64,000 nucleotides of DNA from Lingula anatina (lineage: Eukaryota; Animalia; Brachiopoda). The notes beneath the pieces were generated by a model. The model ran no database searches. It saw nothing but the letters and a program-made list of their open reading frames with translations, and was not told the DNA's origin. Shown here one piece after another: positions 27,701-30,097 of the stretch. Numbering within the stretch: the stretch's first letter is position 1; every line of letters begins with the position of its first letter. The DNA lies in the NCBI GenBank assembly GCA_051362555.1, contig CM120640.1, forward strand, positions 6,262,001 through 6,326,000. Direction: 5' to 3'. Position numbers and translations under genes: made by a program.

Positions 27701-30097
27701 GAGCATGCCGGTAATAATCTTTGCGTTTTACTAACTTTGCTGCTAACAGGAATGGGTAGACAAACAACTCACCTGGGACTACAGGAAATACGGGGGAATA
27801 GACAAGCTTATGGTGCCTGCAAAACACATATGGCTTCCAGATATTGTTCTGTATAACAAGTGAGTGAAGTAAACGCTTTTTTTTTTTTTTTTTTTTTGGT
27901 TTTTGTTTCTGCTTGTGATAGGTGTACGGCGATTACTCCTGGAATGTGGTTGATGACGGTAGGTTTCCCTCATTGCGCTGTTGAATGTACTCGCTGGTAA
28001 TTTGCGCAACTAACACATTTAATGAGTGAAATTATATCATTAGTTTTACAACGTTATCAGGAATGGAACGACACTAGCCTGCTCTGGAAGCCTATAGAAT
28101 ACGGAGGAGTTAAAAAATTATTTGTTCCAGTTGGTGATATTTGGAAACCCGATATTGTGCTCTACAACAAGTGAGTTTTTTTTTCACCTTTTATCTTCTC
28201 CTCACCATAAACCTTGTCTTAGAAATAACACGTGGATGTTTATAGTACTATTGATTTTTAGCATAAGGTAGGCACTTAGCTCATTGTTGCACTTATCTTT
28301 CTTTTCAAAATCATCGTTTTATTTCCCTTTTTCTTAATGTGGTCTGATTTCAAACAGGGAATGGTGTCATGTTCTCGGCAAAATATGAACAGTCATCTTT
28401 CATTATTGTCTTCTTCCTTTTCAGTGCGGATGGCAACTACCAAATTACAATTATGACCAAAGCGACAGTTTACCATTATGGGAGAGTCAAATGGGAACCA
28501 CCTGCAATCTATAAAAGCTACTGTCCGATCAATGTAGAGTTCTTCCCATTTGACGAACAGAATTGTCATATGAAGTTCGGATCTTGGACATACGACGGAT
28601 TCCAAGTGGATTTAAAACACAGAGAGCATCCGGATATCCAGGACGACATCCGGATTGAGAACGGAGTCGACGTGTCTGCGTACTCCAGGAGTGTGGAGTG
28701 GGACCTGATGGACGTGCCGTTTTCAAGGAATACAAAATATTACCCTTGTTGTCCTGAACCATATCCTACCATCACATATAACATCACAATTCGCAGGAAG
28801 ACTCTTTTCTATACTGTCAATCTAATTATACCCTGTGTGGCCATATCATTCCTCACAGTGTTAACATTTTATCTGCCATCACACAGTGGAGAGAAAATCA
28901 CACTTTGTATTTCCATTTTGCTGTCTTTGACTGTGTTCTTCTTGCTGTTGGCAGACTTGATTCCCCCGACGTCTCTGGTGATCCCACTAATCGGGAAGTA
29001 TCTGCTTTTTACGATGATCCTTGTGTCGTTAAGTATCATAGTGACAGTGATGGTTCTGAACGTCCACTTCCGGTCCCCTGCCACTCACAAAATGTCTCCT
29101 TGGGTGAAGAAAGTGTTCCTGTCCATCTTGCCTCGTCTGCTGCTGATGAGAAGGCCAAAACTAGATACGGACAAGGGGGCAAAGGTATTTGTTTCACTAA
29201 GTTTACTTTACAGAAATGGGTAGCAAGTTCTGCAAACGCTGTGCAATGAAAGAATGTTGTTGAAAGGAAAGTATTTTAAAACCTCTAGTAGGTAAAAAAA
29301 TGCACATAAGAAAGATGTAGTTTTTGGGTGGGATGATTTTTTTCTTTATTCCCATGCGTCTACGTTGGTTAAATTGACAGACCCGCGTGAGTAGAGGTCA
29401 ATTAAAGTGTGGTTATTAAAGCAATGCGTTGAGGGAGTGTGATTAAAAACAGACTCAATTTTTTTACCAAATGTAATATCCAGGTACCCGTGGGCGCTGT
29501 AAACGGCGTTAGTGCCAAAAGTCCTTACACTGCCGATACCTACGATAACTTGCCCGGTAACCCCAGTGATCCTCTGCTTGAAGATTCGGACGCGGCTTTA
29601 CTGAAGTACCCGTGGCCCGTGCAGCGTGCCCTGCAGGGAGTGAAGTTCATCGCAGATCACTTGAAGTCTGAGGATCAGCAGCATAGCGTAAACTAAATTT
29701 CTAATTATTTGAAAAAGTCAAGTATGAATTAATGAGATTTACTTGCCAAGGTAAAATGGTAAAATAATTGGGATTATTCAAAGTAAGAAGGCTTCTGAAA
29801 AAAATAAATAAAAAGTAAAAATAATAACTTTATGTGTTTTGTTCTGAATTTTCGATTTTAACGAAAGCACTTTAAGGCAATGTATTGATGTCTTGCTTTT
29901 TTTAAGAGCGTCTTTCATTACTTTTATTCTAGGTTGAAGAAGACTGGAAATATGTTGCAATGGTTTTGGACAGACTATTCCTGTGGATCTTCACGCTCGC
30001 CTGCTTGGTGGGAACTCTTGGTATCATTTTGCAAGCACCCACCATGTACGATGGCAGAACCCCGCTCAACATTGCAAACAGCGACGACTATCAATAG
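18782..30097 (+). CDS. Nicotinic acetylcholine receptor alpha subunit, paralog A (494 aa). Exons 18782-18836, 24333-24478, 25227-25271, [27750-27859 or 28061-28170], 28425-29184, 29484-29687, 29933-30097
   Basis: Signal peptide [29 protein letters not shown]; Cys-loop [15 protein letters not shown]; loop B WTYDG; vicinal cysteines [10 protein letters not shown]1-M3 with [14 protein letters not shown]4. All junctions GT-AG and in phase (55+146+45+110+760+204+165 = 1485 nt). Confidence 0.96.
19984..20118 (+). promoter_or_regulatory. Conserved non-coding element in nAChR-A intron 1 (counterpart ~50156-50290, - strand)
   Basis: GCTGAGTCCCTATCCTG..TATTGATTT.T..TTAATGGAGCGTG...GTCCTGTTC.CTGCTAATGATC...GTAATGGCCCGTAGG shared by both paralogs. 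Confidence 0.8.
22419..22579. mobile_element. Small MITE (EnSpm/CACTA-like CAGCAAACAC ends) with internal AACGTT repeats
   Basis: CAGCAAACACAGA ... TCTGTGTTTGCTG inverted termini; repeated AACGTTAT/ATAACGTT subterminal motifs. Confidence 0.65.
24768..24938 (+). promoter_or_regulatory. Conserved non-coding element in nAChR-A intron 2 (counterpart ~44600-44768, - strand)
   Basis: Shared GAATTTC...AATTGCC...AAATTG.ATT, TCCAT.ATTTACAATTA..TGTTT(T)GGCT.T.AGAAATC.AGG.GATTGATTTTT...TAATGAAGTG. Confidence 0.7.
27106..27363. mobile_element. Fold-back PIF/Harbinger (Tourist-like) MITE, 258 bp
   Basis: Whole element is an inverted repeat GGCTTC.TTCACATG.AATGTCTATTTTCTAAA...; perfect 66-bp core 27161-27226 / 27242-27307; flanked by TTA on both sides. 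Confidence 0.85.
27750..27859 (+). CDS. nAChR-A alternative exon 4a (110 nt)
   Basis: TACTAAC branch point...cag|[36 protein letters not shown](N)|gtgagt. Confidence 0.9.
28061..28170 (+). CDS. nAChR-A alternative exon 4b (110 nt)
   Basis: cag|[36 protein letters not shown](N)|gtgagt. Confidence 0.9.

Follow-up and report, generated by a model that had tools for sequence, protein, structure and literature searches.

Within the 64,000 nucleotides of Lingula anatina DNA that were analysed here (the window), two nAChR alpha genes each carry two tandem, homologous versions of exon 4, and the question arises whether these versions are used as alternatives, what a receptor subunit would change by exchanging them, and how old the arrangement is. 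From our point of view, the best explanation for the data as a whole is probably that the two exons of equal length are spliced in singly, as was seen for gene B and as is likely for gene A, in which case one subunit gene would yield two versions of its binding domain, 4b being the predominant one and 4a the minor one.

Gene A (18782..30097, forward strand) has its coding exons at 18782-18836, 24333-24478, 25227-25271, the 4a/4b pair, 28425-29184, 29484-29687 and 29933-30097. The coding exons of gene B, its inverted paralog (40458..51427, reverse strand), are found at 51427-51373, 45545-45400, 44194-44150, the 4a/4b pair, 42182-41429, 41024-40821 and 40622-40458, and in both genes the 2>3, 5>6 and 6>7 joints were read. 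The two proteins are identical at 437 of 494 aligned residues and represent paralogs of an AChR-E-like cation-type alpha subunit, as judged from the ligand-binding and transmembrane Pfam domains (PF02931 and PF02932 in gene A), the vicinal cysteines in loop C, Tyr93 and a GEK motif before TM2, with the CC and GEK motifs having their textbook meanings in nAChR subunits. The 4b isoform of gene A is identical to XP_013415864.1. For gene B, no full-length protein record was present among the 120 matches listed in either protein search; its protein is intact and expressed, and may be unannotated or mis-annotated.

The four versions of exon 4 are located at 27750..27859 (4a-A) and 28061..28170 (4b-A) on the forward strand, and at 42765..42874 (4a-B) and 42427..42536 (4b-B) on the reverse strand. 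As the first-pass annotation had stated, each of them is exactly 110 nt long, open, bordered by AG and GT and in phase 0/2, and the amino acid identities given there were reproduced (25/36 for 4a-A/4a-B, 30/36 for 4b-A/4b-B and 21/36 for 4a-A/4b-A), to which 20/36 for 4a-B/4b-B can be added. Either exon alone leads to a full frame of 494 aa in gene A or 492 aa in gene B. The inclusion of both exons or of neither shifts the frame, also as predicted, and the stop then lands 877-1040 nt before the last junction; such products would likely be cleared by nonsense-mediated decay. No further duplicated exons were detected in either gene when two isoform proteins were compared with the window by tblastn.

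Evidence for the use of these exons comes from seven of nine listed RNA runs, of each of which ~6-25% was mapped, with runs X1, X2, X4 and X7 serving for gene A and X3, X4, X5 and X6 for gene B. A joint was listed only when it was supported by at least three reads from two starts, and the joint table of gene B was complete. Little or no receptor signal was present in X1, X2, X3 and X7. In X4, exon 4b of gene A is connected by 21 reads to exon 3 (25271>28061) and by 19 reads to exon 5 (28170>28425), and no joint of 4a-A occurs among the joints listed for the four gene A runs, of which X4 alone had substantial depth, the bin depth over 4a-A being <=0.53. For gene B, the 4b>5 joint was read 11 times in X6 and three times in X5, and the 3>4b joint nine times in X6 and once each in X4 and X5. 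The 4a>5 joint of gene B was supported by four reads from four starts in X6, which amounts to 4/15 of the exon-5 joints in this run (exact 95% interval 8-55%). Loose ends at exon 3 of gene B further show the 3>4b form of gene A (22 reads in X4, 14 in X5 and 5 in X6).

Joints that would connect 4a with 4b, or exon 3 with exon 5, were found neither in the complete table of gene B nor among the joints listed for gene A, at a low depth and with decay being able to hide such mRNAs. A 3>4a joint was not listed for either gene, with ~3 reads expected in X6 and a probability of 0.36 for two or fewer, so that its absence there lies within sampling noise. Either-or use is supported for gene B, where the 4a>5 and the 4b>5 joints were both read without a listed 4a>4b or 3>5 joint. 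The junction count that had been proposed as a check turned out differently for the two genes, as both exons join exon 5 in gene B and gene A shows 4b only. The two genes had also been expected to give four extracellular variants; junction support exists for three of the four exon forms, and because no joint attests the use of 4a in gene A in the seven runs, the number of variants is three at present.

How the choice between the two exons could be made is suggested by their acceptors. A 14-nt motif ending in ACTAAC, likely a branch point, precedes 4a-A (27722..27735, forward strand) and recurs with 14/14 identical nucleotides before 4a-B (42889..42902, reverse strand), and ACTAAC followed by a conserved, pyrimidine-poor acceptor block of 17 nt precedes 4b-A (28009..28057, forward strand), with its counterpart before 4b-B (42540..42592, reverse strand). 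ACTAAC can be read as a branch point or as a site for STAR proteins. It is found within 150 nt before all four alternative acceptors and before none of ten constitutive ones (p 0.048, paralog pairs counted once). In the 70 nt that precede 4a and 4b, respectively, the similarity between genes A and B was above that of 500/500 shuffles, a result that none of five constitutive acceptors gave, and this conservation holds although dS between the paralogs is 0.87 for exon 4a and 1.65 for exon 4b. In addition, a donor-like GGTRRGT is found at equivalent positions of the two 4a-4b introns, with the 4b branch motif following after 54 and 66 nt (GGTAGGT at 27958..27964 on the forward strand in gene A, aligned with GGTAAGT at 42649..42655 on the reverse strand in gene B), and could represent a decoy 5' splice site; no joint uses it among the joints listed for gene A or in the complete table of gene B. 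We infer that both alternative acceptors would be weak and regulated, involving the conserved ACTAAC blocks and the conserved donor-like site.

In the OGDH 4a/4b exon pair, a branch point less than ~50 nt from the upstream donor leads to steric exclusion, according to the accessible part of PMC7969005. The Lingula genes resemble this system in the short intron between homologous exons (201 and 228 nt), but differ from it in that the predicted 4b branch motif is 154 and 177 nt away from the 4a donor, with several AGs in between. A simple steric clash is unlikely because of this distance. A coarse test for docking-site/selector pairing, in which each of 15 region pairs per gene was compared with 15 shuffles, gave two pairs with z near 2-2.5 in gene A, none of which repeated in gene B, and local RNA folds around the exons provided no structure signal (z -0.7 to 1.6). 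A hairpin over the 4b acceptor that looks plausible by eye folds no better than shuffles.

With regard to function, the exon aligns gap-free to residues 59-94 of muscle alpha1 and contains the MIR loop and loop A as far as Tyr93, in agreement with the first-pass assignment. This mapping rests on homology, a single-sequence AlphaFold model having been discarded (mean pLDDT 39). Tyr93, which takes part in agonist binding, is kept in all four Lingula exons, and Trp60, Asp62, Trp67, Trp86, Pro88 and Asp89 are invariant among all exons that include these positions. Both 4b exons hold WKPD and the N61-D-T sequon, and both 4a exons hold WLPD and are devoid of the sequon and of Pro69, just as had been noticed at first reading. 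Further class differences concern Leu/Lys87 and Ile/Val75, with 4b being fixed for N61-T63 (the sequon), Pro69, Phe79, Val82 and Asp84. Exchanging 4a for 4b would hence alter the MIR loop (residues 67-76 in the available text of PMC5404922), strand beta3 at position 79 and loop A at position 87 (Leu/Lys), and would add a sequon, but it would leave Trp86, Asp89 and Tyr93 in place. For human alpha6, the portion of PMC4022547 at hand reports that variants equivalent to positions 66, 71 and 82 left nicotine peak currents unaffected in one subtype, and that a variant equivalent to Asp62 was not neutral. Because several of the human variants in this segment were neutral, the effect of the 4a/4b differences may be modest. 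The swap in Lingula would most likely tune assembly, surface delivery and acetylcholine sensitivity to a modest degree, with binding not being switched off.

The question whether such a swap exists elsewhere was addressed at the protein level only: 30 proteins were looked up and 25 multi-member database clusters were compared, with five single-member clusters and short fragments excluded. A swap of exactly this 36-residue segment, with shared boundaries, was found in 10 of the 25 clusters, which derive from molluscs (Aplysia, Lymnaea, Biomphalaria, Pomacea, Patella, scallops, Mytilus and Octopus), the nemertean Lineus and the rotifer Adineta. In nine of these ten clusters, at least one pair is free of differences outside the segment; the Mytilus pair, compared across species, shows 4-5. 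None of eight ecdysozoan clusters contained the swap, and it was likewise unseen in Owenia, Tubulanus, Macrostomum, Littorina, a second Octopus paralog, Babylonia and one further cluster, absence from annotations being weak evidence in all of these cases. One Tachypleus isoform represents an N-terminal truncation and was not counted as a swap.

The closest named family is molluscan AChR-E, comprising Aplysia 'alpha 1' (AAL78648/AGI03861, type E) and 'alpha 2' (AAL78649/XP_012934701) as well as Lymnaea type E (ABA60384). The two Aplysia subunits themselves form such an isoform pair in the database records, with 18 differences inside the segment and 0 outside, and the corresponding numbers for Lymnaea are 16 and 0. 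Many second exons of this family carry Phe93 and Glu/Leu79, whereas Lingula retains Tyr93 in all four exons. Across the ten non-Lingula pairs, Phe replaces the loop A Tyr93 in the second exon of six (molluscs and a rotifer), and the derived exon gains a sequon at position 74 in three. The Lineus pair has only 8 residue differences and fits neither exon class. Within Lingula, the annotated exon 4 of other loci is 4b-like (WKPD) in P0029 and P0044 and 4a-like (WLPD) in P0033, with an adjacent pair, by accession, among them; these three loci may hide second exons or may split both versions between genes.

In a tree calculated without exon 4, genes A and B and three more Lingula paralogs, i.e., at least five in total, form one clade (97/85), which is placed beside the molluscan AChR-E clade (100/99) on an unresolved backbone. 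When the exons themselves were scored, 15 of 16 comparisons, which are not independent of each other, placed 4a nearer to the ancestral-like and 4b nearer to the derived exon of molluscs; the match fails against Lineus and holds in one of two comparisons against Adineta. In the exon tree of 36 columns, which excludes three Rotaria exons that are identical or near-identical to those of Adineta, 4a groups with the gastropod ancestral-like exons (97/85) and 4b, with lower support, with the derived exons (89/79); a placement of 4a within the gastropods is not credible as a species tree. Second exons have a residue other than Leu at position 87 in 10 of 12 cases and other than Tyr at position 79 in 9 of the 10 non-Lingula pairs, the former trend being partly circular because the exon labels were set by likeness to the ancestral motif. 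Judged from these sequence comparisons, we lean towards the view that the pair goes back to an old duplication of this exon in a spiralian AChR-E-type alpha gene.

A somewhat less probable but serious alternative accepts the splicing and concerns the origin only, namely that the exon, as a frame-friendly and often re-duplicated module, was duplicated independently in the brachiopod, the molluscs, the nemertean and the rotifer. AU tests leave Lingula-only origins standing (p 0.131 and 0.169), but equally do not reject a single clade of derived exons (p 0.321). The few differences of the Lineus pair make it look young, and the clusters of Owenia, Tubulanus and Macrostomum are without a swap, although a second exon can be missing from annotations, as is the case with Lingula 4a. 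The identical boundaries in 10/10 pairs and the common trends of the second exons at positions 79 and, with the circularity mentioned, 87 argue for the old duplication instead. In its most far-reaching version, one could speculate that a single early-spiralian duplication created a splice switch between a Tyr93 agonist-binding form and a derived, low-affinity or structural partner (often with Phe93, changed positions 79/87 and an extra glycan), which was kept in brachiopods, molluscs and rotifers and of which Aplysia 'alpha1' and 'alpha2' would be the two states. We regard this extended proposal as less likely than not; if it were true, one gene would supply two roles in the pentamer.

Within Lingula, the sequence divergence between the two genes bears on two further readings. 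The exon duplication had been suggested to predate the gene duplication, and the closer relation of 4a to 4a and of 4b to 4b than of 4a to 4b supports this order; a clade uniting 4a and 4b of gene A is not rejected on the 36-column tree (AU test p 0.105). The suggestion that both versions were maintained is borne out by purifying selection between genes A and B (dN/dS 0.23 for 4a and 0.045 for 4b), with 4a changing faster than 4b between the paralogs (dN 0.20 vs 0.07). It is nevertheless conceivable, if unlikely, that 4a is fading or mainly regulatory, above all in gene A, so that 4b would provide nearly all of the protein and the 4a>5 reads would stem from RNA that retains intron 3. The lack of a listed 3>4a joint in either gene fits with such a scenario, as does the public gene A protein, which carries 4b only and whose cluster is single-member. 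Similarly, since intronic reads occur upstream of 4a-B in X6 (depth 0.3-1.1), some of the 4a>5 reads may derive from pre-mRNA that was not yet fully spliced. The higher dN of 4a and its loss of Pro69 and Tyr79 point in the same direction, but the gastropod ancestral-like exons are likewise without Pro69, the frames are open in both paralogs, the dN/dS of 4a is significantly low (Fisher p 0.0016, between paralogs) and the motif in front of its acceptor is fully preserved. An origin of the two genes, or of the exon pairs, from errors of assembly or haplotype separation is largely refuted and hence highly improbable: TM1-TM3 and exon 2 (24325-24484 vs 45553-45394) are indeed nearly identical between A and B, but dS is saturated over most of the extracellular domain, each gene has joints of its own, the read ratios vary by run, and both genes reside on a single continuous sequence, on which two other genes separate them.

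The near-identity of A and B over TM1-TM3 also qualifies the expectation that all variants are placed on one identical pore. A tract at 28845..29144 (forward strand) matches gene B at 297/300 nt, and owing to this tract the two pores are the same, but the genes also differ outside of exon 4, among other places at a residue of loop B and at another adjoining the vicinal cysteines of loop C. Between A and B, dS is 0.03-0.11 over TM1-TM3 and 0.22 over exons 2-3. Such near-identical tracts amid otherwise synonymously saturated paralogs indicate gene conversion, which likely keeps TM1-TM3 and exons 2-3 of both genes alike.

The exon pair is best regarded as a known strategy, the either-or exons of insect Cys-loop receptors, applied to a different exon in a different lineage. 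As the first-pass annotation had suggested, the alternative exons of insect alpha4 and alpha6 cover other segments (loop E/Cys-loop, loop D and TM2), at least according to the available parts of the respective publications. In alpha4, exon 4/4' alters loop E and the Cys-loop region (PMC2064938, PMC12309072); it is, like the exon described here, a tandemly duplicated and alternatively used exon of the ligand-binding domain in the same broad protostome alpha group, but it follows the segment swapped in Lingula (alpha1 59-94 with MIR and loop A). Mutually exclusive homologous exons that diversify a Cys-loop subunit are also shared with alpha6 (3a/3b and 8a/b/c), RDL and GluCl exon 3. Exon 3 of alpha6 comprises 45 bp, encodes loop D and is frame-neutral if skipped, and exon 8 encodes TM2 (PMC5111602, PMC2064938), whereas the Lingula exon has 110 nt and the presence of both or neither shifts the frame.

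We found no description of the exon pair in the literature that was searched, the main Lymnaea and Aplysia cloning papers and the supplements of surveys being the likeliest places for an earlier mention. In their accessible parts, the molluscan surveys PMC6896357 and PMC13174522 do not describe it, with PMC6896357 naming splicing only in a reference, and splicing is unmentioned in that of PMC3874043. The idea of an undescribed system agrees with this search, but since isoform pairs are already present in public annotations of many molluscs, a nemertean and a rotifer, the swap is older, broader and less of an unseen system than had been assumed. The cholinergic synapses of Aplysia, Lymnaea and Octopus are classic models in which receptor subunits are usually taken as one sequence per gene, and two named Aplysia subunits differ essentially in one segment. 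The conserved swap of an exon that encodes the MIR loop and loop A represents a direct and testable source of receptor diversity, and Lingula contributes an outgroup with two paralogs that expose the conserved splice signals. From our point of view, what most deserves to be tested is the spiralian breadth, together with the change between Tyr93 and Phe93 that molluscs and a rotifer show.

Several additional features of the locus were observed. Outside of the coding exons, genes A and B have three blocks in common, namely 139 nt of intron 1 with 81% identity (19980-20118, forward strand, vs 50294-50156, reverse strand), which is possibly an enhancer, a non-coding block in intron 2 with 75% identity (24746-24917 vs 44791-44619) and a block 5' of the start codons with 72% identity (18077-18192 vs 52250-52135). 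The two intronic blocks revealed no ORF in common and no fold signal, and a search of the window against Rfam at gathering scores gave 0 matches. A MITE-like element at 27098-27371 in intron 3 of gene A, ~380 nt before 4a, consists of 66-nt perfect inner arms and 41-nt outer arms, attracts many multicopy reads in 4/4 gene A runs and is without an aligned counterpart in gene B; it could affect the use of 4a in gene A. Neighbouring genes are located at 5600-11800 and 32283-37000 on the reverse strand and at 37441-38991 and 54000-57200 on the forward strand. They include a single-ORF Tti2 gene and a CoA-transferase III (AMACR-like) gene, and two others which, from motifs in their ORFs, we take to be an MRG15/MORF4L1-like gene and an ABC transporter-like gene. 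Lastly, a tandem array of ~6 copies of a 162-nt unit extends over 58232-59236, with related pieces at 61385-61972.
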